Notes: generated by a model from the sequence alone, not told the origin. A DNA stretch of 64,000 bases from Pseudomonadota bacterium (GCA_024229515.1 JAAESI010000340.1:92808-156807), one strand, 5' to 3'. Shown: positions 42,786 through 63,001, counted from the first letter of the stretch. Numbers and translations are program-made.

Positions 42786-43715
42786 TTATTTCTTCTCGAG
42801 TTCTTTCTTTCGCTCTTCTTCGCGACGCTCCTGGTCGGCCCAGTGCGCGTCGAACTCTTCCTCGGTCATCTTCATCACGCGCTCGCCACTGTCGAGGTTG
42901 ATGCGCTCGTAGTCCTCGTCCGTCATCGTGTCGCGGTAGTGCTTCGTGGTGGTCGTCTTCTCGCCGATGACCTCCTCCACCGCGGCGTTGACCGTGACGG
43001 GCACGTGCAGCTCGGCGCGGGCGCCGTCGGGGTCGGTGGCGGCGATGACGACCTCCCCGTCGAAGGCCTCATCCAGATCGCGCTGCTCGACGCGAACGAC
43101 CCCCCGGTTGTCCAGGTAGATGCCCGGCGGGCCCTTCAGGATCGACCATGTGAGTTCGTCCCCGTCGGCGTCTGCACCCTCCATGCGGAGGCCGTCGATG
43201 CCGGGGCGGCGGGCGATGTCGTTGAGGATCACGGGGATCGAGTTGGCGATCACGATCTCCTTCGACTCGACCGTCGCGATCTGGCCGCGTTCGTCCATCG
43301 CTTCGGCCTTCACGGAGACGCGGTCGCCCTTGCGGAAGCGGCCGGTGGCGGCGCTCAGCTCGCCCTTGGAGACACCCAGCACCGAGCGGCCGTTGACGCT
43401 CCACGTGTACTCGACCTCGGCGAACGACGAGGCGCCCGCCTGCAGCGTCGCCTCCGCTTCGAGCACGTCCTCGATGGTCACCTGCTCGGGGCCCAGGGTG
43501 ATCCCCTGGAACGCCAGCCCGGGCGCCTTGCCCGCGCGCGATGCTTCCTGAGCCGCGGCGGCGGCGTCTCGCTCCTCCTGGCGGGCCGCGGCGGCGTCTC
43601 GCTCGGCCTCCGCGTTGGCGTCGTAGTAGACCGGCGCGGTCGGCGCCTCTTCGGGCTCACCGCCACCGCAGGACGCCAGAAGGAGCAGGGAGGATGCGTA
43701 AAGCCAGGTGCGCAT
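42786..43715 (-). CDS. lipoprotein with Ig-like domain and Lys/Glu-rich tail, hypothetical
   Basis: MRTWLYASSLLLLASC (lipobox). An Ig-like segment reads DGDELTWSILKGPPGIYLD..VVIAATDPDG. Confidence 0.6.
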   Translation of the reverse strand: MRTWLYASSLLLLASCGGGEPEEAPTAPVYYDANAEAERDAAAARQEERDAAAAAQEASRAGKAPGLAFQGITLGPEQVTIEDVLEAEATLQAGASSFAEVEYTWSVNGRSVLGVSKGELSAATGRFRKGDRVSVKAEAMDERGQIATVESKEIVIANSIPVILNDIARRPGIDGLRMEGADADGDELTWSILKGPPGIYLDNRGVVRVEQRDLDEAFDGEVVIAATDPDGARAELHVPVTVNAAVEEVIGEKTTTTKHYRDTMTDEDYERINLDSGERVMKMTEEEFDAHWADQERREEERKKELEKK

Positions 43716-43727
43716 CCGGGAAGTGTA

Positions 43728-44918
<1,191 letters not shown>

Positions 44919-44961
44919 GGCGGCGGAGTGTAAACGAGTTGCGAGGTAGGATCAGGAGGTC

Positions 44962-46650
44962 TTGAACGAGCCCCGCCCGCCCGACGATCCGCTCCCCACC
45001 GAGGATCGTCCGATCCCGTTCGGGCGGTACCAGCTGCTGGAGCTGGTCGGCGAAGGGGCGATGGCGCAGGTGTTCCGGGCGACGCAGTCCGGGCCCATGG
45101 GGTTCACCAAGGAGGTGGCCCTCAAGCGGCTGCGCACGGGAGCGATCTCCCGCGACCGCAAGGAGATGGAGGCGCTCGTCAATGAGGCCCGCCTCGGGGG
45201 CCAACTGCGGCACCCCAACATCGTCGAGATCTACGGCTGCGACGTGCACGACGGCACGTTCTTCCTCGCCATGGAGTACGTGCGCGGCTGGCTCCTGGAC
45301 GACGTGCTGTGGCGGCTCATCGAGGCCGACGAGCGGCTCCCCCCGCCCGCGATCATCGACATCCTCCGGCAGATCGCCCACGGGCTCACCTACGCCCACG
45401 AGGCGGTGGACACGGAGGGCTTCCCGCTGCGGCTGGTGCACCGCGATCTGAAGCCCCAGAACATCTTCCTGGACCGCACCGGGGTGGTGAAGATCGCCGA
45501 CTTCGGGCTCGCGAAGTCCACCGCGGCGCTGTACCGCACCACCGACGCGGACGAGACCAAGGGCTCCCCGCTGTACATGTCGCCCGAGCAGATCGGCGGC
45601 TCCGCGATCGACTCCCGCAGCGACCTGTTCGCCTTCGGCACGATCATCATCGAGTTCTGCACGGGGCTGCGGGCGTTCGAGGGCAACTCGATCCCCAACA
45701 CGCTGATGAAGGTGCTCAACGTCGACTGCGAAGAGGCGATGTCGGCGATGACGAGCCAGGCGCCGGGGCTGCTCCCGATCGTCGGGCGGCTGCTGCAGGC
45801 CAACCCCGGTCAGCGCTACCAGACGGCCCGCGAGGTGGCGCGCGACCTGGATCTCCTCGCGGGGGAGGCGGTCGCGGGATCCCACACCCGGGCGCTGGTG
45901 GGGGCGCTGCTGAACGAGGAGCCGGTGGGGCTCCCCGAGACCATCAAGACGCCGTACCGGGAGCTCAGTTCGCGGCTCCAGGCGGTGGGCGCGCAGGAGC
46001 CGCTGGCGAATCGGCCGCGGCGCGCCGCCCCCGGACCGGCGTGGAAGGAGCCGCGGGGCAGCCAGAGCGTCGTGCTCGCTGAGACCAAGGGCGGCACCAA
46101 GGCGCTGCCCGAGCGTCGCGCGGAGCGGCGTCGGAAGCGGGCGCTGAAGCGGTGGGGAACGATCGGTGGCCTGCTCCTGCTGGCCGGCAGTGTCGGCGCG
46201 GTCGCGCTCCTGTGGGCCATGAACCTGGGGCCCGCCTCCATCCCCGAAGAGGAGCCCGAGGTGCCGCCCTCGGCGCCCGTGGCGGCCGAGGAGGACCTCG
46301 GGTCCGCGCCGCCGCCTCCCCTGGTGCCCAGCTCGACGGAGCTGCAGCGCGTGGGGCCGGCGATCCACATGCCGCGCGCGTCCGCCCGGGTGGGGCAGGA
46401 CCTCCCGATCGCCGTGCAGATGACCGAAGCCGGAGAGTGGAGCGTGACGGCGATGTGGCGACCCTGGCGGGGTCAGTACCGGCCGCTGGCGATGGACCAC
46501 ACCGGTGACGGCCGCTTCGAGGGTCGCGTCCCGTTGGTGGAGGAGGTCGGCCAGGCGGTCGACTACTACATCGAGTTCGATAGGGGCGCGGGGGTGCGGA
46601 CGATCGGTGGGGCGGATGCTCCGTTCCGGGTGGTTGTTCTGGACCGGTAG
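44962..46650 (+). CDS. Hanks-type Ser/Thr protein kinase
   Basis: GEGAMAQVF, ALK, HRDLKPQNIFL, DFGLAK and SPEQ are present, with a central TM segment (GGLLLLAGSVGAVALLWA). The track start is TTG. Confidence 0.85.
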   Translation: MNEPRPPDDPLPTEDRPIPFGRYQLLELVGEGAMAQVFRATQSGPMGFTKEVALKRLRTGAISRDRKEMEALVNEARLGGQLRHPNIVEIYGCDVHDGTFFLAMEYVRGWLLDDVLWRLIEADERLPPPAIIDILRQIAHGLTYAHEAVDTEGFPLRLVHRDLKPQNIFLDRTGVVKIADFGLAKSTAALYRTTDADETKGSPLYMSPEQIGGSAIDSRSDLFAFGTIIIEFCTGLRAFEGNSIPNTLMKVLNVDCEEAMSAMTSQAPGLLPIVGRLLQANPGQRYQTAREVARDLDLLAGEAVAGSHTRALVGALLNEEPVGLPETIKTPYRELSSRLQAVGAQEPLANRPRRAAPGPAWKEPRGSQSVVLAETKGGTKALPERRAERRRKRALKRWGTIGGLLLLAGSVGAVALLWAMNLGPASIPEEEPEVPPSAPVAAEEDLGSAPPPPLVPSSTELQRVGPAIHMPRASARVGQDLPIAVQMTEAGEWSVTAMWRPWRGQYRPLAMDHTGDGRFEGRVPLVEEVGQAVDYYIEFDRGAGVRTIGGADAPFRVVVLDR

Positions 46651-46725: not shown

Positions 46726-52050
<5,325 letters not shown>

Positions 52051-52096
52051 CCCCCCGGGGGACTTCCCCGGAAGTAGCAATCATACCCGCTCGGGT

Positions 52097-53002
52097 CTAT
52101 CGCAGCCGGATGCGCTCCGCGACCCGGGCGACCTTGGGATCGGGATCCTGAGCGAGTCGGTCCAAGCCCGGCAGGGCCTTGCTCAACGTGGGATCAACCC
52201 GGTCCAGCGAACGGAGCGCGTTCAACCGAACGTCGGGACCGGCGTCGCCGATCGCGGCGGTGAGGGCGCCCGCGGCGGCTACCACGTGGAGGTAACCGAG
52301 GGAGCGCGCGGACGCGGCGCGGACCGCCGGATCGGTGTCCTGCAGGGCGAGCACGAGGTCTTCGGCGAGCTCCTCGCCGTCCACCCGGAAGCCGAGCGAG
52401 CGGGCGGCCTCAGCGCGCACGTCGGGCAGGGTGTCGCGGAGGCCTAGAGACAGTCCCGCGAACGCGCTCTCGGGCGCGGCATGGCGGAACGACCACGCGG
52501 CCATTTCGCGGACCTTGCCGTCGTCGCTGTCGCTGAGCACGGCGAGTATGCGCTCACCCCAGTCGTCGCCAATTCGAATCATCGACATCGCCAGACCCGC
52601 CCGTGCGAGGGAGGCATCGGTTCCGTGGAGGATGCGCTCGACGACGGCAGGCTGAGCGTCCGGGTCGGCGAAGACGTCGTCGACGAAGCGCTGGCGCACG
52701 TCGCGGCGGTCATTGACGGGGCGGGCGGTCCAGACCGCCGAGAACAGCTCAGCGTCGTGCCGCCAGCCCAAGACGATGGCCGCCTGGGTGCGGACCCGGA
52801 CGTCGAGGTGGGACTCCGCGAGGTCGGCGAGCAAGCCGTCGTCGATGGCCTCGTCCAGCACGAGCTGCCGGCGGGCGGAGGGGTAGTCGGCCTCTTCCAG
52901 GTCCCAGGCGATCAGCAGCACGTCGGCGACGTCGGCGTGATCCTGCGCCAGCGCGGGGAGGGCGGAAAGGAGGGCGAGGAGGGTCAGGAGGGTTGTACGC
53001 AT
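52097..53002 (-). CDS. secreted HEAT-repeat protein
   Basis: The ATG at 53002 shares 1 nt with the upstream TGA. The signal peptide is MRTTLLTLLALLSALPALAQD. PBS-lyase-type HEAT units are DPAVRAASARSLG, GPDVRLNALRSL and DPKVARVAERI. Confidence 0.7.
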   Translation of the reverse strand: MRTTLLTLLALLSALPALAQDHADVADVLLIAWDLEEADYPSARRQLVLDEAIDDGLLADLAESHLDVRVRTQAAIVLGWRHDAELFSAVWTARPVNDRRDVRQRFVDDVFADPDAQPAVVERILHGTDASLARAGLAMSMIRIGDDWGERILAVLSDSDDGKVREMAAWSFRHAAPESAFAGLSLGLRDTLPDVRAEAARSLGFRVDGEELAEDLVLALQDTDPAVRAASARSLGYLHVVAAAGALTAAIGDAGPDVRLNALRSLDRVDPTLSKALPGLDRLAQDPDPKVARVAERIRLR

Positions 53003-54681
53003 CAGTTCAACACCTCGTCCTCGATCAGATGTCCGGCGGTCAGCCACCACTCTTCGTTCGGCGTCCGCGTCATGTTGGTGCCGCAGTGCACCTCGCCCAG
53101 ACCGAGGTGGTAGACGGACCAGTTGTCCACGAAGTGCCAGTCGATGCCGGAGGGGTAGGTGTCCTCGATGAAGGCGATCATCGGGTCTTCGTCCTGGCCG
53201 ATGTCGGAGTTGGCGCTGTCCCGCATGAAGGGGTCCGCGAGGAAGATGTCGGTCCGGTCCCCGCGGTTGGCGACGATCATGTTCGCCATGCCGGGGATGA
53301 GGGCGGCGTCCGTGCCACCGCAGCCGCCGGGCTCCTCGAAGAGGCTCGGCATCGGGATGATCTCTTCGGCGGTGAGGTCGAACTTGTCGATGAACCGGTC
53401 GAGGATCGGGTCGAGCACGTCCTCGGTCAGGTCCTCGTTGAAGTACCGCACCGCGTCGTCGTTGACGAACTCCTCGATGGTGTCGATGCCGTAGCTCTGG
53501 CGGTACTTCGGCAGCTCGACGTTGTCGGCTCCCTCGAGCACCTCCCAGGCCGCCGAGGCGTCGCTGTAGACGAAGCGGAAGCCGCGGGGGGCGCTGGGGT
53601 CGGGGACGAAGCTGACGAACTCGTCGACGTGGCCGACGCAGAGCCAGGAGGTGTCGACCCGGAAGGGCGCCTGGATGAGCTGGTCCGCGAGGTGGTCGGT
53701 CATCTCGACGGCGGGGTGGTAGTTGTCGTCGCCGCCCCAGTAGGCGCGACCGAACGGGTAGGCGTCCCCGAGCGGCGGCGAAACCTCGAGGTTCCCGAAC
53801 GAATCCAGGGAGTTGGCGACCTGGGGCCGACCCCAGGTGCCGATGATGGCGTCAGGTCCGCCGACGAAGCCGTCGCCGGGGATCGCGTCGAAGTTGTTCT
53901 CGGGCCAGTTGTCGAGGCCGCGGTCGCGGACCGAGTCGATGACGACGTCGATGCGCTGGTCCTTTGCGCCGTACCAACCGAACTGCACCTCGTCCTGGAT
54001 CCAGACGTCGCCGAAGTAGGTCTGGGCGCTGAACGCGGTGAACTGCTCGCCGAGCACGTCCTCGTACGTCTCCACCATGTGGCGGTTGTTGTAGCTGCCG
54101 CCGCCGAAGCTGAGGTCCATCACCCAGACGTGCTCGGTCTGCTGCAGGTGGTGGTTGAGGAGCATCGACCCGGTAGTCATCCACAGGGTGAACGAGGCGA
54201 GGACCTCGCCGTCCTCGTCGAGGTGATACAGCGTCGCGGTCGTGATGGTCAGCGGCTGGTCCGCCTCCACCTCGAAGACCTGGTCGACGTCGGTCTCGGT
54301 GAGGTTGTAGCTGGTGAGGTTGGGGCCTTCGGCCTCGCCCAGGATGAGCACGTCTTCCTGGGTGATGCGGATGTTGCCGGCGTCGCCGCCGAGATCGAGG
54401 CGGAGCCACTCGCCCTTGTTCGCTTTGACGCTCTCCCACGCGGTCGCGGGGAGCACGAAGACGGAGCGGTCGTCGTCTTCCGCGGCGCGCCCGGCTTCGG
54501 ACCAGTCGGGCTCACCGTCGACGTTGTCGTCGTCGATGTTGGGGATGAGGGCGAGCCCGGGGAACGTCTCCAGGGAGCCGAGGGGGTAGCCCTCGGCGGT
54601 CAGCTCGAGCGGGGCCTCGCTGGAAGGGCAGCCCGCCAGGAGAAGGGCCGCGCTGGCGAGGGCGATGATCCGTCGTCGCAT
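53002..54681 (-). CDS. lipoprotein with animal-type protein-arginine deiminase (PAD, PF03068-like) catalytic domain
   Basis: MRRRIIALASAALLLAGC (lipobox). GGAG lies 5 nt upstream of ATG 54681. PAD signatures are GDVWIQDEVQFGW, LDSFGNLEVSPP, WLCVGHVDEFVSFVP and GLGEVHCGTNM. Confidence 0.85.
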   Translation of the reverse strand: MRRRIIALASAALLLAGCPSSEAPLELTAEGYPLGSLETFPGLALIPNIDDDNVDGEPDWSEAGRAAEDDDRSVFVLPATAWESVKANKGEWLRLDLGGDAGNIRITQEDVLILGEAEGPNLTSYNLTETDVDQVFEVEADQPLTITTATLYHLDEDGEVLASFTLWMTTGSMLLNHHLQQTEHVWVMDLSFGGGSYNNRHMVETYEDVLGEQFTAFSAQTYFGDVWIQDEVQFGWYGAKDQRIDVVIDSVRDRGLDNWPENNFDAIPGDGFVGGPDAIIGTWGRPQVANSLDSFGNLEVSPPLGDAYPFGRAYWGGDDNYHPAVEMTDHLADQLIQAPFRVDTSWLCVGHVDEFVSFVPDPSAPRGFRFVYSDASAAWEVLEGADNVELPKYRQSYGIDTIEEFVNDDAVRYFNEDLTEDVLDPILDRFIDKFDLTAEEIIPMPSLFEEPGGCGGTDAALIPGMANMIVANRGDRTDIFLADPFMRDSANSDIGQDEDPMIAFIEDTYPSGIDWHFVDNWSVYHLGLGEVHCGTNMTRTPNEEWWLTAGHLIEDEVLN

Positions 54682-54787
54682 GAACACTCCGGGCCGAAAG
54701 ATAGGTCGGCGGGGGAAGGATATCGAAGTGTGTTTGCGAGCCCGGTGATGTTTCCGTCAACCCGGTAAAGACTCGGACAAAACCGGG

Positions 54788-55690
54788 TCAGGACCACCAG
54801 TGCAGCTTCATGCAGTAGACGGAGCCGCCCGAGAGCAGGAACTGGTCGGTCTCCAGCTCGATCACTTCGATGCCGAGTTCCCGCAGCTGGGCGTTGCAGC
54901 GAGGGCTCCCCTTCTGGACCAGGAAGTGCCGTCCATCGGGGCTGTGGCCGTTGCAGGCCATGTTCATCGCCTCGACCTCGTTCACCTCCACGAGGCGCGG
55001 CACCAGCGACGCGAGGAGCTCGCGGCCGGCGTCGTCGAACGCCCCGGGGAACACCACCGCGGTCTGCTCGTCCACGAACGAGAGGCAGGTATCCAGGTGG
55101 TAGAAGCGCCGGTCGACGAGCCTCAGCAGCGCCACGGGCACGCCGGTCATCGCCGAGACGCGCTCCCACGCTTCCCGCCGCGAGCGGGGCCCGACGCCGC
55201 CCCACAGCAGCGCTCGGCCGGGGTGCCAGGCGCCGTCCCCGGTGCCCTCCATGCTCGGCACGCTCCAGGGGTCCAGGTGCGCGATGTGCACGCCGCGCTC
55301 GGCGAGGAAACCCTGGATGTGGGCGACTTCGGGCTCCCGTCGGGCGCGCCGCATGATGGACATGATCGCGCCCGAGCCTTCGGTGAGCAGACCCGGGGGG
55401 ACCGGCAGGGACTGGTTGGCGCAGAACACGAGATCCGGCAGCAGCGGCTGGCCCTCGAGCACGTCCACGGTCTGGCCGATTCCCCGGTAGGCCTCCACCA
55501 GGTGACGCCACTGGTGACGCGCCTCAAAGCGGTTCACCTGGCCGACGTTGCCCTCCATGTGAGGGTTGATCACGTACTCGACGTCGTAGAACCGCGGCTC
55601 CACCACGAGCACACGATCCGGCAGCGGCACGGTCGGGAGGTCCGCCAGCAGGGGCACCTCGGGCCCCGGCCGTTCGATCAGCTGACTCAC
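54788..55690 (-). CDS. amidinotransferase/DDAH-like guanidino-group-modifying enzyme
   Basis: 300 aa with no signal peptide. Motifs are VINPHM, DLVFCANQ, FYHLDTC and the C-terminal SGGSVYCM (candidate catalytic Cys). Confidence 0.7.
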   Translation of the reverse strand: MSQLIERPGPEVPLLADLPTVPLPDRVLVVEPRFYDVEYVINPHMEGNVGQVNRFEARHQWRHLVEAYRGIGQTVDVLEGQPLLPDLVFCANQSLPVPPGLLTEGSGAIMSIMRRARREPEVAHIQGFLAERGVHIAHLDPWSVPSMEGTGDGAWHPGRALLWGGVGPRSRREAWERVSAMTGVPVALLRLVDRRFYHLDTCLSFVDEQTAVVFPGAFDDAGRELLASLVPRLVEVNEVEAMNMACNGHSPDGRHFLVQKGSPRCNAQLRELGIEVIELETDQFLLSGGSVYCMKLHWWS

Positions 55691-55697
55691 GCGCGGG

Positions 55698-57446
55698 CTA
55701 CTGAACGATCAGCGGGTACGTGATCTTCTTGGGGGTCCCGTCGAACGGCGGGAACTTGAGCGCATTCAGCTCGCGGCTGATGCAGGTGTCCAGCGCGGTG
55801 CCGGCGAATCTCGACGTCGTCACGCGAGCCTTCGACACGCCGCCCTCGGGGGCGATGGTGAACTTCAAGTAGATCTTGCCGCTGAGGTCGACGCCCTTGG
55901 CCTCTTCGACCCGCAGGCAGCGCACGATGGCCGCGTTGTTGCGGATGATCGTGTCGATGACGAACGGGCTCGGGCCGTCGCTCTTTGCGCTGGAGGAGGA
56001 GGCGTCGGGCTCGTTCAGGCGGGGACGGGACGGGCCGGGGCCCGACGACTCCCGGGGGGCGGGGGTCGGCTCGGCCTTCGGCCGGGGGGTGCGACGCTCC
56101 GCGGGGGGCGGACGCACGACATCAGCCTTGCTCTCCTTGGCCGGGGTCGGCTCGCGCCAGGCTTCGTCTTCCTTGCCGTTGCCCAGGCCGGCGACTTCGG
56201 TGCCGCTGTACTTGCGCGCCATCTCCAGCTCATCGCTGTCGAGGCCCGCGCCGGTGGCGCCGTCGCCCGTCGCCTCGCCCTCGGGGGCGGGAGCGGGGGT
56301 CGCGACGGGGGGCACAGGCTTGGTCGGAGGCGGACGCAGCTCCGCCGGCGACGGAGTGTCGTTGCCTCCGCTGACCAGCCCGCCGGCGACGGCGAAGTGG
56401 ATGGCGGTAAGCACGACCGTCAGGAAGAAGGCGAGGATCAGCGCGATCGGGGTGCGCTGCGGGTGCAGGCCGCGGCCGGTGACCGTCGCCAGGAACAGGC
56501 ACGCGGTCAGCCCGAGGGCGGCGAGGGCGAAGAAGATCAGCGAGACCGGCCAGTCGAGGCCGGCGAGGCTTCCCAGGAGGCCGACGAGGCCGACGATGCT
56601 GAACCAGGTCACGGCGCCGAGGACCGGCGAGGCGGACACCTTGACCGAGGTCACGGCGGTGGCCGAACCCATGGCTGCGGCGCTGCGCGGGGGCACGGAG
56701 CCGCCGACCGTCGGGCTGGGCCCGGGCGAGGGGCTCAAGCCGAGCGTCGGGCCGGTGCTCCCGTTGCTGGGGGCGACGCCGCCGCGGCCGGTGGTGGGCA
56801 GCGGAAGGGGGCGGGTCTGATCGCTCGATGGAGCGAATCCGCCGGTCGGGCCGGGGGGCACCGGGCCGGCCTGGGAGGCAGGGCTGGGCACGCCCGCGAC
56901 GCTGGGCGAGGGGCCGTCGTAGACCTTGGTCGCCGGAGAGTCGCTGGGGGGGATGGCGGTCGCAGGGATGACCGAAGGCATGCGCGGCGGGCTGGGCTGC
57001 GCGGCGGGGCCGGGGGCCGCGGACTGGCTCGGCAGCGGCGCGATGGCCGGCGGCGGAGGCGGAGCGGGGGTCGGCTCGGACGGTCCGGCGGGCCCGAGCG
57101 GCCCGAGCGCGTCGGCCTTGGCGGTGGGGCCACCGACGGACTGGATGCCGGGGATGGAGATGGCCCGAAGCTCGGCCGTGAGGCTCCCGATGGAGGGGAC
57201 TGAAGCCTGGCTCGAGGCCATCTTCTGGAGCTCCGGAACCGACTTGATGACGGTCCGCTCCTCGTCCTCTTCTTCAGCGGCGGGGCTGGTCTGGGACGCA
57301 GCCGCCTCCTCGGCAGCACGGCTACCGGGCTTGTAGATGATGATCTTGTGGCCGCAACGCTTGCAGGTGGCCCGGTTGACCTCCTTGCTCAGCTTCTCGT
57401 TGGCGATCTTGTAGACCGCGCCACAGTTGTCGCAGACGACTCGCAT
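55698..57446 (-). CDS. zinc-ribbon - Pro-rich linker - TM - AgmX/PglI-type C-terminal domain protein
   Basis: MRVVCDNCGAVYKI..CKRCGH (MJ0042-type zinc finger), then a long Pro/Ala/Ser-rich region and TM helices. The C-terminus, GKIYLKFTIAPEGGVSKARV..CISRELNALKFPPFDG, resembles a TonB_C/AgmX fold. Confidence 0.7.
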   Translation of the reverse strand: MRVVCDNCGAVYKIANEKLSKEVNRATCKRCGHKIIIYKPGSRAAEEAAASQTSPAAEEEDEERTVIKSVPELQKMASSQASVPSIGSLTAELRAISIPGIQSVGGPTAKADALGPLGPAGPSEPTPAPPPPPAIAPLPSQSAAPGPAAQPSPPRMPSVIPATAIPPSDSPATKVYDGPSPSVAGVPSPASQAGPVPPGPTGGFAPSSDQTRPLPLPTTGRGGVAPSNGSTGPTLGLSPSPGPSPTVGGSVPPRSAAAMGSATAVTSVKVSASPVLGAVTWFSIVGLVGLLGSLAGLDWPVSLIFFALAALGLTACLFLATVTGRGLHPQRTPIALILAFFLTVVLTAIHFAVAGGLVSGGNDTPSPAELRPPPTKPVPPVATPAPAPEGEATGDGATGAGLDSDELEMARKYSGTEVAGLGNGKEDEAWREPTPAKESKADVVRPPPAERRTPRPKAEPTPAPRESSGPGPSRPRLNEPDASSSSAKSDGPSPFVIDTIIRNNAAIVRCLRVEEAKGVDLSGKIYLKFTIAPEGGVSKARVTTSRFAGTALDTCISRELNALKFPPFDGTPKKITYPLIVQ

Positions 57447-57595
57447 CACTCTCCCGAATGGGCGCGGGACCTGGGGGGCTACAGCGCTGACCTACCCCGA
57501 ACTCCGCAGCCGACGGACCCTACTTCAGCCGGCCCGATCAAGTCAATTGAAGGATTACGCGCGTGAGGACAGCGACCCTGTCGGTCGAACGACGG

Positions 57596-58525
57596 TCATC
57601 GATCGAGGACGTCCGGCACGCTCACCAGAAGGGGGCGGAGCCGAGCCAGGACGTTCGTCCACTGGGCCCGCGGGATCGCCGGGAGCGCGGCGGTGCGGTC
57701 GTCCAGCCACTTGCAGACGCCGGGGAGCCCGCCCTCCAGCTGGTGGAACGGGAGCAGCCACATCGTGACCTCGCCGTCCGCTTCGAGGTCGTCGCCGATG
57801 AGCACGTACTCGGGATCCCGCAGCAGCGTGTCGACGTCGGGGGCGAGCACCACGGCGAGCACCTCGCGCCCGTCCCGACCGTCGAGCCACATCGGGTTGG
57901 CCTCGTGGTACCGCTCGAACCCGCGGGCCTCGATGCTCCCCTGGATGCGCTCGATCAAGGCGACCGGCAGGTCCTCGGGGTCGTGGAGATCGTCGATGAG
58001 CTCGATCCAGGTGCGGGGGCCGATGGCGGCGTGCCCGGCGGGGCCGCCGATGCGGGCCACCCGACCCTGCCGCACGGTCGCTTCGACCGACGCGACGCCG
58101 GCGACGCACTCGTTCAGGTAGCGCTGATCGTCCTGCTCGAAGTGGCGGAGCACGCCCTCGGCGAGGAACTCCCCCTCCCCCTCGACCCGCAGCGTGCCCG
58201 AGGGACCCGCGAGCACCTGGCAGACGGCGACGGCGAGCCGCCAATCGCTCCACGTGGCCAGCGCGGCGACGGAGACGACCACCTCGGCGGCGTCACGGCC
58301 GCGGGTGGCGAGCAACTCGACCCCGCGAGTGGAGGCGCCGGGCACGTAGATGGCGATGCGGGGGTGGGGCCAGGGGCACCACGAGGTGCTTCGTTCGCCC
58401 TGATCGGCGGCGATGGTCGTGACCTCGTCGGCCTGCACGTCCATTCCGAGCCGGTCTCCGGCCGCGTCGATCAGATCGGCGAGGGTCGGGAGCTCGGCGA
58501 CGTCGACGCGCACGACGAAGGCCAT
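57596..58525 (-). CDS. hypothetical cytoplasmic protein
   Basis: The ATG at 58525 lies 2 nt after the upstream stop and gives MAFVVRVDVAELPTLADLIDAAG. The composition looks protein-like, unlike the Arg/Pro-rich 5' extension in the track. Confidence 0.5.
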   Translation of the reverse strand: MAFVVRVDVAELPTLADLIDAAGDRLGMDVQADEVTTIAADQGERSTSWCPWPHPRIAIYVPGASTRGVELLATRGRDAAEVVVSVAALATWSDWRLAVAVCQVLAGPSGTLRVEGEGEFLAEGVLRHFEQDDQRYLNECVAGVASVEATVRQGRVARIGGPAGHAAIGPRTWIELIDDLHDPEDLPVALIERIQGSIEARGFERYHEANPMWLDGRDGREVLAVVLAPDVDTLLRDPEYVLIGDDLEADGEVTMWLLPFHQLEGGLPGVCKWLDDRTAALPAIPRAQWTNVLARLRPLLVSVPDVLDR

Positions 58526-58527
58526 GC

Positions 58528-61407
58528 TCAGTCGTCCTCCCCGACGACGCGCCGGAGCGCGAGCAGGCCGGGGTCGTCGGGGTCGAGGAGCTCGGCCTTG
58601 TCGAGGGCGCGGACGGCGAGCTCGGGCTGCTCGAGGGCGAGCCAGGCGCGGGCGAGGTTCACGAAGTGGTCGGGCTGGTCGGGGGCCCACACGATCGCGA
58701 GGTTCCCCAACTCGACGGCCCGTTGGGGGTCGTGGTGGACGTGCGACTCGGGGTGCCCGAGCACCCAGGCGTGGAGGCCGACGAGCGTGGCGCAGGGGCG
58801 GCGCAGGGTGCCCAGGTCGGACTCGACGGCGACGCGGCACTCGGTCACAAGGAGGTCGAGCTCACGGCGGGCGGAGGCGCGGCGCGCGCGTTCGAAGGCG
58901 GCGTAGGCGGCGAACCGGGCGGGCAGGTCGACGTCGGGGCGGATGGCCCGCCACTGCACGCGCCACTGCTCGTCGGTGAGGTACGGGTCCAGGTCGGTGA
59001 GCAGGTGCAGCTGGAAGCGGACGGTGTCCCAGGAGATCCGGTCCCAGTTGTCGTCGGCCTGCCACACCAGCGAGTCGACGAGCACGTCCACGCCGTCGGG
59101 GTCGCCGGCGGCGAGGAGGGCGCGGGCGGCGGCGCGGCGCACGGTGCGGTCGCGGTCGCTGAGGGCGGCGATCTTGATCCACTCGGGGAGCGGCTCGGCG
59201 AGGGTGGAGTCGGCGATGCGGGCGCGGTACTCGGCCTCCGCCGCCGCCCAGCGCTCGGCCGGATCGCCCTCGGGGTCGCCGGTCCCGGGGTCGGGGGGGA
59301 GCTCGGCGGGCACGGCCTCGCCGGACCAGGTGAACGGGCCGAAGCCGCCCTCGGGCCGCAGGGGGGCGTGGTCGAAGCCGGCGCGGCTGACGACGGTGTC
59401 GATGCCGGCGGCGCGGTCTTCGAAGAGCCAGGTGGCGTTGTCGGCGGCGTTGCCCCCGGGGCGGTTGATCGAGACGGCGTAGGTGTCGCTGCCGCCGAGG
59501 TCGGCCAGCAGCGCGGTGGCGCCGCGGTCGGGGCGGGCGGGAGGCACTGCGAACGCGATGCCGTCCCACAGGGCGACGTAGTGGTCGTCGCCGCCCTCGT
59601 CCACGAGCAGGCCGAGGGCGTGGGCGCGGCGGGCCCAGCCGATGCCTCCGCCGAGGTCGTTGGGGACCGCGTTGCCGGCCGGTTCCAGGCGGTAGGAGTC
59701 GGGCGCGTCGCCCTGGTCCCAGAGCACGCCGACGGAGCGGTCGACGGCGGCGCCGAGCACGGTGTTGGTGCCCTGGTAGGCGTCGGATCCGGCGCTGTCG
59801 ACGAGGATGCCGGCGGCGAGGTGCGAGGCGCTGCCCTGGGACCGGTACTCGGCGACGTAGCGGTCGGACCCGGCGCGGTCCAGGAGCATGCCCAGGGCGA
59901 GCATCTCGCCGCTGCCCTGGCCGTAGGCGCGAGCGTAGTAGCCGTCGTTGCCGTGGCGGTCGTACAGCAGGCCGACCCCGCCGTGCAGCGTCGCGTCGCC
60001 GACCCATGGGTACGGGCGGGTGCCGTAGGCGCCGCCCTGTCCGCCGCCGCCGTACAGGCCGAGGATGTCCTCGCCGGGGATGCCGAGGCGGACCTGGTCC
60101 GAGCCGAACAGATCGATGTAGGCGCCGAGGCCGCCGGTGGAGGCGAAGCCCTGCCCACGGCCGTGGACGACGGAGCGGTCGTCGCCGGAGCCGTCGACGA
60201 GCAGGCCGATGCCGAGCGTGCCGGCCCCCTGCGCGAAGCCGTTGGCGGAGCGGGCGTCGTCGCCCCCCTGGTCCCAGAGCACGCCGACGCCGAGGAAGCC
60301 GGCGCCCTGGCACTGGTAGGTGCAGAGGTAGTCGTCGGCGTCGCGGCCGGCGTCGATGAGGATGCCCACGCCGCCGTAGCCGGAGCCCTGGGTGTGGGGG
60401 GCGGTGGCGGTGTAGCGGTCCTTGCCGCCCAGATCGATGGCGACGCCCACGCGCGAGGGGAGGCCGACGTTGGAGCCGGCGCCGCCGGTGTACTCGTCGT
60501 TCCCGGCGGGGTCGATGAGGAGGAAGGCGTCGTTCCCGGCGTGCTTGTCGTCGCCGGTGCTGCCCACGATGAGGGCCCCCAGGGAGGTCTCGACGTACAG
60601 CAGCGGGCCGTTGGAGGCGGGCAGCTCGGCGGCGGCGAGGCGGGGGAGGATCGCTTCGATCTGGGCGAGCAGCTCGGAGGCGTGGGAGCGCATCCAGGGG
60701 TAGGAGAAGCGCTGGGCGAGCTCGAGGAACCCCAGCTGCACGCCGACGGGGTGGCTGCGCACGCGCAGCTCGGTGCCGAAGGAGCCGACGAAGAACGACT
60801 CCGCGGTGCGGCGGGGGGTCGGCATCTGACCGTCGGCGCCCCACCGGAGGTGGGCCTTGTAGATGTGCTTGCAGAGCTCATCGAGGGCGTCGCGGAAGTC
60901 GGCCGGGAGGTGGGCGCTGAGCACCTGGCCCTTCTCGGATTCGAACAGCTCGGACGGCTTGGGCAGCGGTGAGACGAAGGTCGAGGCCGGCGGCGGCAGC
61001 GGTGCGGCGGGGTCGGCGTCGCCGCCGGGCGCGACGGGCGTGAGGGCGTCGAGCAGGGCCGAGGGGCTCCCGATGCCGGGAAGCTCCGGCTTGCGGTAGC
61101 GCGTGCCGGGGTCGGGGAGCGGGCCCGCGGCGGCGTCGAGGGCGTCGCCGAGGCGGTTGGCAAACGGGGCCGCGGCGAGGGGACGCGCGAGCACCGAGTC
61201 GATGACCGGAGAGCTGGTGGGGACGAAGTAGCCGGCTTCCTCGGCTCGGGGGAGGGCGAGGCTCTCGAGGCTTCGGCTGGACAGGCGGAGGCCCCGCTCG
61301 ATGGGGGCCTCGCCGGGGGCCGGGTCGGGCGGCGGCGGCACCGGCTTGGGGCAGCCGAGCAGGAGCGCGAGGGCGGCGGCGCTACTCCAGGAACGGAGCG
61401 ATGGCAT
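58528..61407 (-). CDS. lipoprotein with ~12 G.L.D..G.D.Y solenoid-like repeats and HEAT/TPR-like tail
   Basis: MPSLRSWSSAAALALLLGC (lipobox). Repeat cores include FLLIDPAGNDEY, VAIDLGGKDRY, GLLVDGSGDD, GMLLDRAGSDRY, GILVDSAGSDAY and GLLVDEGGDDHY. Confidence 0.7.
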   Translation of the reverse strand: MPSLRSWSSAAALALLLGCPKPVPPPPDPAPGEAPIERGLRLSSRSLESLALPRAEEAGYFVPTSSPVIDSVLARPLAAAPFANRLGDALDAAAGPLPDPGTRYRKPELPGIGSPSALLDALTPVAPGGDADPAAPLPPPASTFVSPLPKPSELFESEKGQVLSAHLPADFRDALDELCKHIYKAHLRWGADGQMPTPRRTAESFFVGSFGTELRVRSHPVGVQLGFLELAQRFSYPWMRSHASELLAQIEAILPRLAAAELPASNGPLLYVETSLGALIVGSTGDDKHAGNDAFLLIDPAGNDEYTGGAGSNVGLPSRVGVAIDLGGKDRYTATAPHTQGSGYGGVGILIDAGRDADDYLCTYQCQGAGFLGVGVLWDQGGDDARSANGFAQGAGTLGIGLLVDGSGDDRSVVHGRGQGFASTGGLGAYIDLFGSDQVRLGIPGEDILGLYGGGGQGGAYGTRPYPWVGDATLHGGVGLLYDRHGNDGYYARAYGQGSGEMLALGMLLDRAGSDRYVAEYRSQGSASHLAAGILVDSAGSDAYQGTNTVLGAAVDRSVGVLWDQGDAPDSYRLEPAGNAVPNDLGGGIGWARRAHALGLLVDEGGDDHYVALWDGIAFAVPPARPDRGATALLADLGGSDTYAVSINRPGGNAADNATWLFEDRAAGIDTVVSRAGFDHAPLRPEGGFGPFTWSGEAVPAELPPDPGTGDPEGDPAERWAAAEAEYRARIADSTLAEPLPEWIKIAALSDRDRTVRRAAARALLAAGDPDGVDVLVDSLVWQADDNWDRISWDTVRFQLHLLTDLDPYLTDEQWRVQWRAIRPDVDLPARFAAYAAFERARRASARRELDLLVTECRVAVESDLGTLRRPCATLVGLHAWVLGHPESHVHHDPQRAVELGNLAIVWAPDQPDHFVNLARAWLALEQPELAVRALDKAELLDPDDPGLLALRRVVGEDD

Positions 61408-62011
61408 CCGTGACCTCCCGCCGGTGGATGAAGTCGGAGATGTAGTCGAGCTTCTCGGTGTTGATCTCGAGCGTCGGGCTCAGGTCCCACCGCGAGAACC
61501 AGTCCTCGTACAGCGTCTGAAGCTCCTTGAGGTACTTCAACGGGATGGCCTGCTCGTTGGCGCGACCGCGGGACTTGATGCGGCGGCGCACGGCGCGGAC
61601 GGAGCAGCGCAGGATGATGAGCAGATCGGGCGGCGCCAGCGCCTGGGTCATCGCCTCGTACAGGTGCGTGTAGGTGGCCCAGTCGCGATCGGACATGCGG
61701 CCCGACTGGTGCAGGCTCCGGGCGAAGATCTCGGCGTCCTCGTAGATGGTTCGGTCCTGGACGACGGTGGACGGCTCCTCCATCAGTTCCATGTGAAGCC
61801 GGAACTTGTGGGACAGGAAGCTGACCTGGGAGTGGAACGCCCAGGCGTTCATGTCGGCGTAGAAGTCGTCCAGATACGGGTTGAGGGCGTTGGGCTCCAT
61901 GAAGGGGCGGAAGCCGTACGTCTGGCACAGAAACTGGACCATGGTCGACTTGCCCGCGCCGATGTTTCCGGCGACGGCAATGAACTTGCGAGGCTTCGCG
62001 CCGGGGAGCAT
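61382..62011 (-). CDS. deoxynucleoside kinase family protein
   Basis: The ATG at 62011 gives MLPGAKPRKFIAVAGNIGAGKST (P-loop). The DRTIYED motif and the lid SVRAVRRRIKSRGR are present. The upstream part of ORF 61382..62209 only translates the repeat array. Confidence 0.85.
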   Translation of the reverse strand: MLPGAKPRKFIAVAGNIGAGKSTMVQFLCQTYGFRPFMEPNALNPYLDDFYADMNAWAFHSQVSFLSHKFRLHMELMEEPSTVVQDRTIYEDAEIFARSLHQSGRMSDRDWATYTHLYEAMTQALAPPDLLIILRCSVRAVRRRIKSRGRANEQAIPLKYLKELQTLYEDWFSRWDLSPTLEINTEKLDYISDFIHRREVTDAIAPFLE

Positions 62012-62066
62012 CGCGGGAGGGTAGCGCAGAGGGGTGTGGGGGGTCCTTGAGGAGGGAGCGGTCTGT

Positions 62067-62224
62067 GACCGCCAGAACGGGGCGAAACGAGTCGTTTCTC
62101 CTCCCGATGGCGAGGCCACACCGCCACAAACGGGGCGAAACGAACCGTTTCGCCCACCAGTGGCGGAGCCAAACCGCCACAAACCGGCCGAACGATTCGT
62201 TTCGCCCACCGGTGGCGGAAAGCC
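62067..62224. repeat. three head-to-tail 51-54 bp compound palindromes (REP/BIME-like)
   Basis: The units span 62067-62117, 62118-62170 and 62171-62224. The consensus is CCGCCACAAAC-GGGCGAAACG-aac-CGTTTCGCCC-ACCA-GTGGCGG, giving a 7-bp outer stem and a 10-bp inner stem. Confidence 0.9.
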
Positions 62225-62230
62225 GGGCCC

Positions 62231-63001
62231 CTACCTCCCAACTTCCCGCGCCCGGACCACCTGCCGCCACGCGGTCCTCAACGCCAGCTGCCCCTCAACC
62301 GCCCGAACCATCTCGATCTCTGGCTCCAGGCTCTTGAGTCGCTCGACCGAACGCGAACCGATGCCGATCGCAGTCGCAAGCGTCACCGCCGAGCCGTCCA
62401 CGATGTACACCGCCGCACACCGCGCCGCCCTCGCCCGCTCGTGCCTCGCATGCGCCGCGATGACACACGCAGCAGCCCCCACCGACGCTCGCAACACGCC
62501 GACGTCGAACGGCGCCACCGCTGGCATCACCGGCAGCTGCTCCAGCAGCCGTTCGCGCCCCACCCGCGGGAGGTACCGTCGCACGTTCCCGATCGTCCAC
62601 CCTCCCAGGGTCCGCCAACCGAGCAAGTCAGGCAGGTTCGAAGCCTCGAACAGGGGATCCAACTCGACCCCGTGGTGCTTCTCCTGCCCCAGGCAGTACC
62701 AGAAGAGGTTGCGCAGATGCCGCTGGTCCACAACCGGCTTGACGTACACCTCGGAGAACCCCACCCCGGGCTTCAGCCGATGCTGCAGCGAAATCTCGAC
62801 CCGCCGCCCCAACTCCCGGCCCGCGGGACCGTCGTTCATCGTGACCGCATGCAGGTGGTCGTCGACCAACCGGAACACGACGACCTCGAACGGCCGTCCC
62901 ACCGTCAGCATCGACTCCGCCACGTGACACCGCGCCGCCGCGTTGTTCGCGATCACCCGGCCGTCCTTCAACCGCATCATCAAGTGGGAACCCACCGCCA
63001 T
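62231..63001 (-). CDS. HUH/Y1 (IS200/RAYT-like, PF01797-like) transposase-like protein with C-terminal HTH
   Basis: FEVVVFRLVDDHLHAVT is the HUH block and RNLFWYCLGQEKHHG is the Tyr block (compare Y..NPV.HG). A candidate HTH is TLATAIGIGSRSVERL. The start is ATG 63001 or 62980. Confidence 0.55.
   Translation of the reverse strand: MAVGSHLMMRLKDGRVIANNAAARCHVAESMLTVGRPFEVVVFRLVDDHLHAVTMNDGPAGRELGRRVEISLQHRLKPGVGFSEVYVKPVVDQRHLRNLFWYCLGQEKHHGVELDPLFEASNLPDLLGWRTLGGWTIGNVRRYLPRVGRERLLEQLPVMPAVAPFDVGVLRASVGAAACVIAAHARHERARAARCAAVYIVDGSAVTLATAIGIGSRSVERLKSLEPEIEMVRAVEGQLALRTAWRQVVRAREVGR

Follow-up and report, generated by a model that had tools for sequence, protein, structure and literature searches.

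What would a protein-arginine deiminase (PAD) of the animal type do in a bacterium, in which compartment would it work and with which partner? These questions are raised by a gene on the minus strand of the window, i.e., the whole stretch of 64,000 nucleotides from a Pseudomonadota bacterium that was analysed. Protein citrullination plays a central part in human immunity and in autoimmune disease, but little is understood of its roots in bacteria; a single bacterial enzyme of the PF03068 family has an assigned role, the tailoring of a lasso peptide. From the evidence described below, it is likely that this gene encodes an exported, lipid-anchored and Ca2+-dependent peptidyl-arginine deiminase, built from a PAD_M and a PAD_C domain and translationally coupled to a HEAT-repeat partner. 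The features of the locus are collected in Table 1.

Table 1. Features of the PAD locus; positions are counted from the first nucleotide of the window.
Feature	Residues	Coordinates	Strand	Remarks and basis
PAD gene		53002..54681	(-)	559-aa lipoprotein precursor; ORF, PF03068, human PAD2/PAD4 matches
Ribosome-binding site GGAG		54687..54690	(-)	5 nt 5' of ATG 54681; read from sequence
Lipoprotein signal peptide MRRRIIALASAALLLAGC	1-18	54628..54681	(-)	lipobox L-A-G-C, lipidated Cys18 (predicted)
PAD_M-like Ig-fold domain	19-175	54157..54627	(-)	family profile, AF2 model, residue map
NHH linker	176-178 of PAD			between PAD_M and PAD_C
PAD_C catalytic domain	176-559	53005..54156	(-)	Pfam spans residues 175-548
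Catalytic Cys533 codon	533	53083..53085	(-)	PAD4 Cys645; inside GEVHCGTN; 113/113 relatives
PAD stop codon TGA		53002-53004	(-)
Partner, exported HEAT-repeat protein	301 aa	52097..53002	(-)	Sec signal MRTTLLTLLALLSALPALA followed by QD
Partner beta-hairpin loop (P-V-N-D-R99-R-D-V-R-Q-R105-F)	95-106	52685..52720	(-)	DSSP of model

The reading frame of the PAD gene covers 53002..54687 if a GTG start is used, and 53002..54681 if translation begins at the ATG. The latter is the likely start because of the GGAG located 5 nt upstream, a spacing in agreement with the coordinates given in the original prediction (53002-54681). Database entries 100% and 99.8% identical to the protein exist, and the GC3 of the gene (0.946, versus an overall GC of 0.668) resembles that of the neighbouring genes (0.87-0.95), therefore it is a genuine native gene. 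A scan for sigma-70 promoters between 51800 and 57800 revealed no promoter-like site, and a scan for intrinsic terminators in the same interval gave one weak terminator-like site on the plus strand, inside the gene of a Zn-ribbon protein, which does not exceed the chance expectation. The mature protein has a pI of 4.05, with 104 Asp and Glu versus 25 Lys and Arg residues; the acidity that had been ascribed to the N-terminal region is real, but it extends over the whole mature protein.

The product belongs to the PF03068 family. It matches this Pfam model over nearly its full length (profile positions 14-394 of 395) with an E value of 2.8e-54 and 185 bits, where the cut-off is 25 bits, and a plain phmmer search also connected it with human PAD2 and PAD4 (E 2e-34). 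No match to the PPAD/agmatine deiminase (PF04371) or arginine deiminase (PF02274) models was found in Pfam and NCBIfam, so the original assignment to PF03068, as opposed to the PPAD or agmatine deiminase type, holds. The motif blocks GDVWIQDEVQFGW, LDSFGNLEVSPP, WLCVGHVDEFVSFVP and GLGEVHCGTNM occur in the order in which they had been described; they are animal-like, and in a comparison with the reference clades they resemble the blocks of animals and cyanobacteria more closely than the blocks of the fungal and actinobacterial PADIs do.

Residue equivalences were established against PAD4, whose numbering was verified and to which the window protein is about 28% identical, and conservation was scored over 113 members of the family. 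As had been anticipated, the catalytic residues D230, H351, D353 and C533 align exactly with D350, H471, D473 and C645 of PAD4, and each is kept in all of the 113 relatives. The Ca2+ ligands of the PAD_C domain are likewise in place, i.e., Q229, Q233 and E299 for Ca1 (Q349, E353 and E411 in PAD4), and E231, D249, S250 and D253 for Ca2 (E351, D369, S370 and N373). Most ligands from Ca1 to Ca5 are invariant or nearly so; the replacement of E353 by Q233 recurs across the family, with Glu in 70 relatives and Gln in 43. The Ca4 "switch" position is occupied by D277; Asp is present there in only 69 of the 113 relatives, and the alignment is less certain at this point because an insertion adjoins it. 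PAD4 is known to hold its substrates bent, in a turn-like conformation. The substrate-binding residues of the window protein are W227, R252, R254 and V349; the positions corresponding to W347, R372 and V469 of PAD4 are invariant or nearly so, and both R252 (R372) and R254, the equivalent of the backbone-binding R374, are conserved. R639 and H640 of PAD4 are replaced by G527 and L528.

The N-terminal region had been judged to be unlike the Ig-like domains of the vertebrate enzymes, an impression explained by the failure of the Pfam PAD_M model to match. Indeed, when the 207 N-terminal residues were compared with PAD_M (PF08527) and PAD_N (PF08526), neither model matched even at E values up to 10. 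Nevertheless, a profile built from 40 sequences of the family aligns to residues 111-661 of human PAD4 (E 2e-84), i.e., to PAD_M plus PAD_C, and its N-terminal part aligns to residues 111-300. The AlphaFold model, with a pLDDT of 87 overall and above 90 in the PAD_M-like domain, is superposed on PAD4 by Foldseek with a TM score of 0.72 (E 3e-37, approx. 570 columns). In addition, the Ca3, Ca4 and Ca5 ligands N153, D155, D157, D165, D179 and E252 of PAD4 correspond to N48, D50, D52, D59, D71 and E139, and D70 also belongs to this group (the PAD4 set includes D176). N48, D50, D52 and D59 are invariant, and D70, D71 and E139 are conserved in the family. Since the family profile and the structure align to PAD_M, the null result with PF08527 was not counted against homology; a PAD_M domain is present and only PAD_N is missing, given that PF08526 did not match and that the mature protein begins approx. 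30 residues before the first Ca2+ motif of PAD_M (N48).

The N-terminus reads MRRR-IIALASAALL-LAGC, a signal peptide that ends in a lipobox ([LVI][ASTVI][GAS]C). The lipobox noticed originally (LLLAGC) is thus genuine: all sequences of the 40-sequence alignment keep Cys18, and at least 91 of 120 homologues possess a lipobox, as do nearly all the full-length representatives of the clusters formed at 50% identity. The conservation of the lipobox across the family is a new point. From these sequence features we infer the export of the protein and its localisation.

Relatives of this protein are abundant. In a collection with one genome per species, 390 of 400 pattern-matched stretches encode one, and more than 676 were found in the protein database, where NCBI names the family "protein-arginine deiminase family protein". 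All of the best 80 genome loci are of the Myxococcota type, including those of Enhygromyxa salina and Paraliomyxa miuraensis, and the identity of the relatives grades from 76% to approx. 37%. The protein of the window is therefore part of a large, mostly Myxococcota clade of the PF03068 (PADI) family. The original view of PADs as in essence animal proteins, with only scattered homologues in bacteria, is no longer up to date in the light of these numbers and of previous reports that listed 837 bacterial PADs (Harris 2020) and 69 proteobacterial species (Cummings 2021, PMC8826395); two-domain proteobacterial PADIs were already documented in both studies.

The HEAT-repeat gene that follows is the only conserved neighbour of the PAD gene, considering the window and the 80 related loci. 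At the junction TGATG, the ATG of the partner and the PAD stop codon share the base A at 53002. The partner adjoins PAD in 76 of the 80 loci, and three of the four misses are contig ends; in the 74 loci where it lies downstream on the same strand, stop and start overlap in 41 and the gap is between -4 and +10 nt in 69. Two other candidates were discarded. The ArgZ/DDAH-like and Zn-ribbon genes located upstream were considered as a general functional link to PAD; their conservation is confined to the 10-11 closest loci. The giant downstream gene with MopE repeats was found in 4 of 80 loci.

The partner matches the HEAT_2 model of Pfam (E 7e-18), and it is modelled by AF2 as an α-solenoid with a pLDDT of 92.6. 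In this model, residues 95-106 form a hairpin between helices. Over 76 partners, R99 in this hairpin is the most conserved residue of the family (99%), accompanied by P95 (87%) and R105 (78%); the remaining highly conserved Arg residues occupy ordinary "VR" positions of HEAT repeats. Foldseek gave no functional lead: the best matches were alphaRep binders and the others were generic HEAT and armadillo binders.

A similar arrangement is present in more distant lineages. The lipoprotein PADs of Myxococcus faecalis and Chondromyces crocatus are each followed by an exported HEAT-like gene of approx. 310 residues with an ATGA overlap, and two low-GC lineages of lipoprotein PADs show the same order of PAD and partner. 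The low-GC partners are homologous to that of the window according to hhalign (95%), and R99 is not clearly conserved in them; a profile comparison of the M. xanthus-type partners with the window's partner gave no significant similarity. No neighbour of the HEAT type was found next to a cyanobacterial three-domain PAD or next to a Lysobacter-type PAD, both devoid of a signal peptide, each type being represented by one locus in this comparison. The literature search returned no report on the function of myxobacterial PADs or on a PAD-HEAT pairing, and the exported two-gene module is apparently undescribed.

According to the reading that we favour, the signal peptide would direct the precursor to Sec export, Cys18 would be lipidated and the enzyme would be tethered in the cell envelope; an outer-membrane location is guessed because the +2 residue is Pro and not Lys. 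The abundant extracytoplasmic Ca2+ would fill the Ca1-Ca5 sites and order the active site, as it does in PAD2 and PAD4. Cys533 would then attack the guanidinium carbon of a peptidyl-arginine gripped by D230 and D353, with H351 acting as acid/base, so that ammonia departs and hydrolysis yields peptidyl-citrulline. Activity, Ca2+ dependence and peptidyl substrates are expected for the whole clade by homology. The enzyme and its partner would be made together by translational coupling, and the partner would most likely bind PAD, be it as substrate, pseudo-substrate regulator or adaptor; that the contact occurs through the protruding R99 hairpin is our guess.

The same gene pair could also be conceived as a toxin with its immunity protein. 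The PAD lipoprotein would then be an inter-bacterial weapon that citrullinates envelope proteins, delivered for instance onto prey or, by outer-membrane exchange, from one myxobacterial cell to another, and the HEAT protein a periplasmic immunity protein or inhibitor blocking the active site. Myxobacteria are predators and pass the lipoprotein toxins SitA by outer-membrane exchange. Such pairs typically have an effector gene tightly followed by that of a small partner, their stop and start overlapping, as here; both products are predicted to reach the same compartment, the partner is predicted to be a protein-binding solenoid with alphaRep binders as its top structural matches and it bears a conserved protruding Arg; moreover, in M. 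faecalis a pair formed by an AHH nuclease and Imm11 lies approx. 2 kb upstream. However, the pair acts as a conserved orthologous module rather than as a polymorphic toxin: most of the sampled genomes contribute one locus to the best 80 (two MAGs contribute two), and the graded identities come from a single monophyletic clade. Next to PAD, the window shows neither a delivery domain nor an Rhs/PAAR/VgrG gene nor a toxin island, and no orphan immunity gene was seen in the 80 loci. This explanation is therefore considered unlikely.

A role as a tailoring enzyme, deiminating secreted peptide natural products or free guanidino compounds and not proteins, appears quite improbable. The precedent is the only bacterial PF03068 PAD with an assigned function, from Streptomyces, which deiminates the lasso peptide citrulassin, whose gene lies elsewhere in the genome (Harris 2020); furthermore, natural products are plentiful in myxobacteria and the gene directly upstream of PAD codes for an ArgZ-like guanidino-modifying enzyme. 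However, the maturation of lasso peptides is cytoplasmic, whereas this PAD is predicted to be exported and lipid-anchored, and biosynthetic genes, for RiPPs or otherwise, are absent from its flanks both in the window and in the 80 loci. The conservation of R252 and R254 fits peptidyl substrates, and the ArgZ-like neighbour is kept only in the 11 closest loci.

It is very improbable that the protein is a non-catalytic scaffold with a structural or binding role together with the HEAT protein, after the manner of mammalian PADI6, which is among the matches found and keeps the fold without activity. The replacement of the Ca1 glutamate by Q233 could point in this direction, but a Gln at this position can still ligate Ca2+ and it alternates with Glu in the family. 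The catalytic tetrad, the substrate-binding W/R/R/V set and nearly all the Ca1-Ca3 ligands are invariant in 113 diverged relatives, a pattern that marks selection for catalysis.

The position of the family was evaluated in a neighbour-joining tree of 486 columns with 200 bootstraps, in which supports are bipartition frequencies. All 200 replicates recover the window family as monophyletic. The vertebrate PADI2 and PADI4 together with the three-domain cyanobacterial PADIs (clade A of Cummings 2021) group without it at 96%, and the fungal, actinobacterial and Myxococcus PADIs (clade B of the same study) form a separate group at 100%. The sister group is divided, with clade A in 60% of the bootstraps and clade B in 31%. 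A recent horizontal transfer of the gene from an animal or a cyanobacterium, which could be read from the blocks LDSFGNLEVSPP and DSxRDRGL, identical or nearly so to those of animal and cyanobacterial PADIs, and from a mean identity of 30% to clade A, a little above the 25% to clade B, is hardly credible in view of the lack of any compositional anomaly, the deep and fully supported clade outside clade A, the missing PAD_N, the NHH linker and the spread over many Myxococcota lineages with the same partner gene.

Returning to the envelope deiminase with its coupled partner, the association is present in at least four deeply diverged lineages, i.e., the clade of the window, the Myxococcus/Chondromyces type and the two low-GC lineages. 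It is tentatively proposed, as a possibility that we hold with less confidence than the function of the single enzyme, that exported lipoprotein PADs and their co-translated HEAT partners constitute an ancient two-component module for citrullination in the envelope. In such a module, R99 would dock in the active site of PAD and be either a substrate or a pseudo-substrate switch, and extracellular Ca2+ would stand in for the regulated Ca2+ signal of animal cells. If this were true, the "animal/cyanobacterial-specific" Ca2 and Ca-switch features would be ancestral bacterial characters and not synapomorphies. Ca2+-site features kept by this clade have served to mark a transfer from cyanobacteria to animals; hence, the features considered specific of each PADI clade need to be re-examined. 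A whole clade of bacterial PADs is predicted from sequence to work extracytoplasmically, where Ca2+ is not limiting, and its members are nearly always made with one specific exported helical-repeat protein, a candidate substrate or regulator. Cultivable carriers are available, i.e., E. salina and P. miuraensis for the type of the window and Myxococcus species for the Myxococcus type.

In comparison with known systems, the family forms a clade of its own, with animal-type Ca1 and Ca2 sites but with an NHH linker and without PAD_N. It shares with clade A the PAD_M plus PAD_C fold, an identical catalytic tetrad, the same Ca1, Ca2 and Ca3 ligands and mostly the same Ca4 and Ca5 ligands, the arginines R372 and R374, and the motifs DSxRDRGL, LDSFGNLEVSPP and GEVHCGTN. 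In contrast, the members of clade A have PAD_N and a TPN linker between PAD_M and PAD_C, the vertebrate enzymes are cytosolic or nuclear whereas the window protein carries a lipoprotein signal and is predicted to be extracytoplasmic, and the coupled HEAT gene was absent from the one cyanobacterial-type locus examined.

With clade B, the family shares the two-domain build without PAD_N, a His-rich linker (HHH in clade B), and the presence of bacterial members, of which those from Myxococcus and Chondromyces are likewise lipoproteins with a HEAT-like gene; nevertheless, it also falls outside clade B in the tree. In clade B, the Ca2 site (E351 changed to F, Y or V, and D369 to R) and R372 are lost, and RSAQ replaces the animal-type DSPR, whereas the window family keeps the animal-type residues. 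It was previously reported that E351 is changed to F or Y, D369 to R and D388 to G in clade B, and that the Ca switch is lost (Cummings 2021, PMC8826395); this divergence is absent from the window protein, in which E231, D249, S250, D253 and D277 are present. The gene neighbourhoods of the Streptomyces PADs, which belong with this two-domain type, are reported to be highly diverse (Harris 2020).

PPAD from Porphyromonas gingivalis is Ca2+-independent (Harris 2020). It represents a different family (PF04371), to which the window protein shows no match; the likeness is a functional analogy only, and both belong to the superfamily of guanidino-group-modifying enzymes. PPAD favours arginines at the C-terminus and leaves the cell by the T9SS instead of as a lipoprotein; secreted and attached to the surface, it is, like the enzyme proposed here, a bacterial peptidyl-arginine deiminase that works outside the cytoplasm.

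The gene for the protein-arginine deiminase (PAD) lipoprotein and the gene for an exported HEAT-repeat protein directly downstream of it were shown, as judged from their sequences, to form a translationally coupled pair, and this almost obligatory partner would be the main new point regarding these enzymes. In the window, the PAD stop codon TGA (53004-53002) and the partner ATG (53002-53000) overlap by one base, giving TGATG. A partner profile search revealed that the HEAT gene adjoins PAD in 76 of the best 80 related loci; in three of the remaining four the contig ends within approx. 300 nt of PAD, leaving a single locus (L039) that truly has no partner, and in another (L023) the partner lies upstream. 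Considering the 74 loci where the partner is downstream and on the same strand, stop and start overlap in 41 (ATGA or TGATG), and the gap is between -4 and +10 nt in 69. For this count, the candidate partner start closest to the PAD stop was used, and this choice gives N-termini that are genuine signal peptides of the Sec or lipoprotein kind. No other gene is a general companion of PAD in the 80 loci. No description of the PAD-HEAT pairing was found in the literature; HEAT proteins, lipoproteins and secretion are mentioned neither by Cummings et al. 2021 (PMC8826395) nor by Harris et al. 2020, who reported highly diverse PAD gene neighbourhoods.

Features of the PAD region (window positions)
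Feature	Position	Strand	Remarks
PAD ORF from GTG	53002..54687	-	561 residues
PAD ORF from ATG	53002..54681	-	559 residues
HEAT-repeat partner	52097..53002	-	301 residues; Sec signal MRTTLLTLLALLSALPALA followed by QD; HEAT_2 repeats, E 7e-18
MopE-repeat protein	46726..52080	-	1784 aa, secreted; 24 tandem Cu-binding_MopE Cys/Asp-rich repeats, 747 bits
ArgZ/DDAH-like enzyme	54788..55690	-	300 aa, cytoplasmic, guanidino-modifying; 106 nt upstream of PAD
Zn-ribbon protein	55698..57449	-	583 aa; N-terminal Zn_ribbon_4
Ser/Thr protein kinase	44962..46650	+	Pkinase, E 3e-42; adjoins the MopE-repeat gene
Long ORF	43657..46500		no Pfam match
Long ORF	57596..58840		no Pfam match
Long ORF	58845..62270		no Pfam match

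The shorter PAD frame, as given in the original prediction, is the likely gene, since its ATG at 54681 stands 5 nt past a GGAG, as read from the sequence. The original prediction had placed the product in the PF03068 type, distinct from the Porphyromonas PPAD and agmatine deiminase types. Its observation was confirmed, and its interpretation was supported in part only: all the motifs it quoted occur in the ORF in the order claimed, PF03068 matches with an E of 2.8e-54 (185 bits, profile positions 14-394 of 395), and neither of the other two types, nor arginine deiminase, is matched in Pfam and NCBIfam. The best solved relatives are human PAD2 and PAD4 (E 2e-34). The gene is native and real; its GC3 of 0.946 is similar to that of the adjoining genes, with no visible compositional step. 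At residue 122 (54316..54318) its product has Leu where the otherwise identical database entry P0001 has Arg, a single-residue strain difference. The mature protein is strongly acidic (pI 4.05), and the lipobox proposed for it holds, MRRRIIALASAALLLAGC being a textbook lipoprotein signal with a Cys invariant in an alignment of 40 full-length relatives. A lipobox is present in at least 91 of 120 PAD homologues, the misses being mostly truncated or slightly non-canonical, as well as in nearly all full-length family members that represent 50%-identity clusters. The lipoprotein signal was thus found to be conserved, and would be one of three points added to the known bacterial two-domain PADIs.

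When the profile of the 40-sequence alignment was searched against the PDB, human PAD4 aligned over residues 111-661 (E 2e-84), a span that takes in the second Ig-like domain (PAD_M) and the catalytic domain. Likewise, the AlphaFold model of PAD (pLDDT 87, pTM 0.85) superposed on PAD4 over approx. 570 columns (TM 0.72, E 3e-37). A residue map was rebuilt for PAD4 111-661 from the profile alignment, its numbering verified at 27 known functional residues, and carried onto 113 relatives. The catalytic Asp, His, Asp and Cys anticipated from the motifs were recovered, and a PADI-family enzyme with its catalytic and Ca2+-binding apparatus apparently intact was thereby shown.

Functional residues of human PAD4 and their counterparts in the window PAD
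Role	PAD4	Window PAD	Conservation
Catalytic	D350, H471, D473, C645	D230, H351, D353, C533	invariant in 113 relatives
Substrate binding	W347, R372, V469	W227, R252, V349	invariant in 113 relatives
Substrate binding	R374	R254	107/113 relatives
Ca1	Q349, E353, E411	Q229, Q233, E299	conserved; 233 is E or Q
Ca2	E351, D369, S370, N373	E231, D249, S250, D253	conserved
Ca3	N153, D155, D157, D165, D176, D179	N48, D50, D52, D59, D70, D71	conserved; N48, D50, D52 and D59 invariant in the family (113 relatives)
Ca4 "switch"	D388	D277	Asp in 69/113 relatives; alignment less certain because an insertion adjoins the position in the window PAD
Ca5	E252	E139	conserved

The N-terminal region, earlier described as unlike the vertebrate Ig-like domains, is PAD_M, because the profile, the superposition and the Ca2+-ligand map all align there; PAD_N is the sole absent domain. 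The Pfam PAD_M model does not match this region even at E up to 10, which explains why its identity was not obvious. Other architectures were also seen: the homologues P0103 and P0118 (642-645 aa) carry between lipobox and PAD an extra Somatomedin-B domain (PF01033), usually associated with extracellular proteins, and in many entries of the representative library (P0346, P0347, P0352, P0373, P0375, P0377, P0381 and others) the PAD domain is C-terminal in a very long protein of 1000-2800 aa and most similar to that of the animal/cyanobacterial or Lysobacter types.

The model of the partner is an alpha-solenoid (pLDDT 92.6) in which residues 96-105 form a single small beta-hairpin; the structures nearest to it are generic protein binders of the alphaRep and HEAT types. 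Among 76 partners the hairpin motif is P95-x-x-[T/D]-R99-[A/R]-G-x-x-R105-F, R99 being the most conserved residue (99%). In a Kofleriaceae MAG (locus L058, 5560..7809; JALHPV010000061.1) the PAD frame extends approx. 400 nt past its usual end and includes a HEAT-partner-like segment (E 5e-12). Either a natural fusion or a frameshift in the sequencing explains this, and the fusion, if real, would be Rosetta-stone evidence of a physical interaction.

Between 57449 and 46726 there are five genes, all on the minus strand, and a crude scan found no promoter- or terminator-like site between them. Among solved structures, the ArgZ-like protein is closest to ArgZ, the arginine dihydrolase of cyanobacteria (Sll1336, Alr4995; E 2e-33), and its NCBIfam scores (DDAH 167 bits, Arg_dihydro 156 bits) are both well under the equivalog cut-offs; by its sequence it corresponds to the N-terminal domain of ArgZ on its own. 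Beyond the 11 closest loci, its gene is not kept beside PAD. The MopE-repeat gene, directly downstream of the HEAT gene and encoding a weakly matched N-terminal beta-helix, is common to only 4 of the 80. In the Zn-ribbon protein there is a long region rich in Pro, Ala and Ser, together with hydrophobic segments and a C-terminal domain that is conserved; the last 90-100 residues or so of the protein are kept in the 10 nearest loci.

From these results, it can be proposed that PAD is exported by Sec, lipidated and then anchored in the envelope, where external Ca2+ would fill Ca1-Ca5 and order the active site, just as happens in PAD2 and PAD4. Cys533 would form an S-alkylthiouronium intermediate on peptidyl-arginine held by D230 and D353; with the assistance of H351, ammonia would leave and water would yield citrulline. 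The partner would bind PAD, either to be its substrate or to serve as an adaptor or pseudo-substrate regulator. Taken together, this picture of enzyme, export and partner is probably correct; docking through the R99 hairpin is a far more tentative suggestion. A toxin-immunity pair would fit the gene order and the common compartment, but is unlikely given the conserved, mostly single-locus, orthologue-like distribution. In Myxococcus faecalis (locus L081, 1301..3204; CP144336) an AHH nuclease toxin and an Imm11 immunity gene lie approx. 2 kb upstream of the Myxococcus-type PAD-HEAT pair, which bears on this alternative but may be a coincidence. Slightly less likely still is the tailoring of a peptide or small molecule, as PAD is exported and has no biosynthetic neighbours. 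The invariant catalytic residues make a non-catalytic scaffold very improbable, and a recent transfer from animals or cyanobacteria is hardly credible considering the composition, the deep and separate clade that the family forms, and the lack of PAD_N.

The search with PAD gave more than 676 relatives, the best 120 being 40-76% identical over the full length, and several are named [quoted passage not shown] at NCBI. Among 400 motif matches in a collection that has a single genome for each species, 390 encode relatives, and the best 80 loci, Enhygromyxa salina DSM 15201 and Paraliomyxa miuraensis among them, are all on Myxococcota-type contigs (Nannocystaceae, Kofleriaceae, Polyangia). The MAGs of the closest relatives (L001-L005, L020, L021, P0143 and others) bear the titles "uncultured Rickettsiales", "Enterobacterales" or "Enterobacteriaceae bacterium"; these relatives nevertheless have the PAD-HEAT locus of Myxococcota type, and the taxonomy in the titles seems to be a placeholder or wrongly assigned. 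When 1.84 billion cluster representatives were searched exhaustively with a profile, 818 PAD representatives were obtained at E < 1e-30, approx. 80 of these 50%-identity clusters belonging to the family.

Pairing was also seen in other lineages. The low-GC lipoprotein PADs P0382 and P0360 are followed, after 20 and 4 nt, by 373-aa HEAT_2 proteins homologous to the window partner (hhalign 95%, E 2e-8). M. faecalis and Chondromyces crocatus have PADIs of the Myxococcus type that are lipoproteins too (LGGC, AAAC), each followed through an ATGA overlap by an exported protein of 304 or 317 aa with faint HEAT_2 matches, too diverged for profile comparison to show homology. One cyanobacterial-type three-domain locus and one Lysobacter-type locus, both encoding PADs without a signal peptide, have no HEAT neighbour; with one locus per type, this contrast with exported PADs is anecdotal.

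Harris et al. 2020 compiled 837 bacterial PF03068 enzymes from Actinobacteria, Cyanobacteria and Proteobacteria, and showed a Streptomyces PAD to be responsible for the citrulline in citrulassin. Cummings et al. 2021 (PMC8826395) distinguished a two-domain PADI type of fungi, actinobacteria and proteobacteria from a three-domain type common to cyanobacteria and animals; their 150-sequence alignment includes Plesiocystis pacifica, with a C-terminal sequence similar to the family. The window enzyme therefore belongs to a known kind, the bacterial two-domain PADIs. In a neighbour-joining tree of 16 references from their supplementary alignment, PAD4 and 16 family members (486 columns, 200 bootstraps), the family is monophyletic (100%), as are clade A (animals, three-domain cyanobacteria, Limnoraphis, Microscilla; 96%) and clade B (fungi, actinobacteria, M. 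xanthus; 100%); the family is sister to clade A in 60% of bootstraps and to clade B in 31%. Animals and cyanobacteria still group together, so the transfer hypothesis itself is unchallenged. The diagnostic columns of the family are a mosaic: like clade A it keeps the Ca2 ligands and R372 (motifs DSxRDRGL and LDSFGNLEVSPP), where clade B has F/Y/V, R and Q, whereas its PAD_M-PAD_C linker NHH resembles HHH of clade B and not TPN of clade A, and PAD_N is absent. Cummings et al. 2021 (PMC8826395) stated that Ca sites 2 and 4 "appear to be exclusive" to the late cyanobacterial and metazoan clade; our alignment shows that a predicted Ca2 site, and usually the switch Asp too, occur in a large separate bacterial clade, and this animal-like site in a third bacterial clade would be a further addition to the known PADIs.
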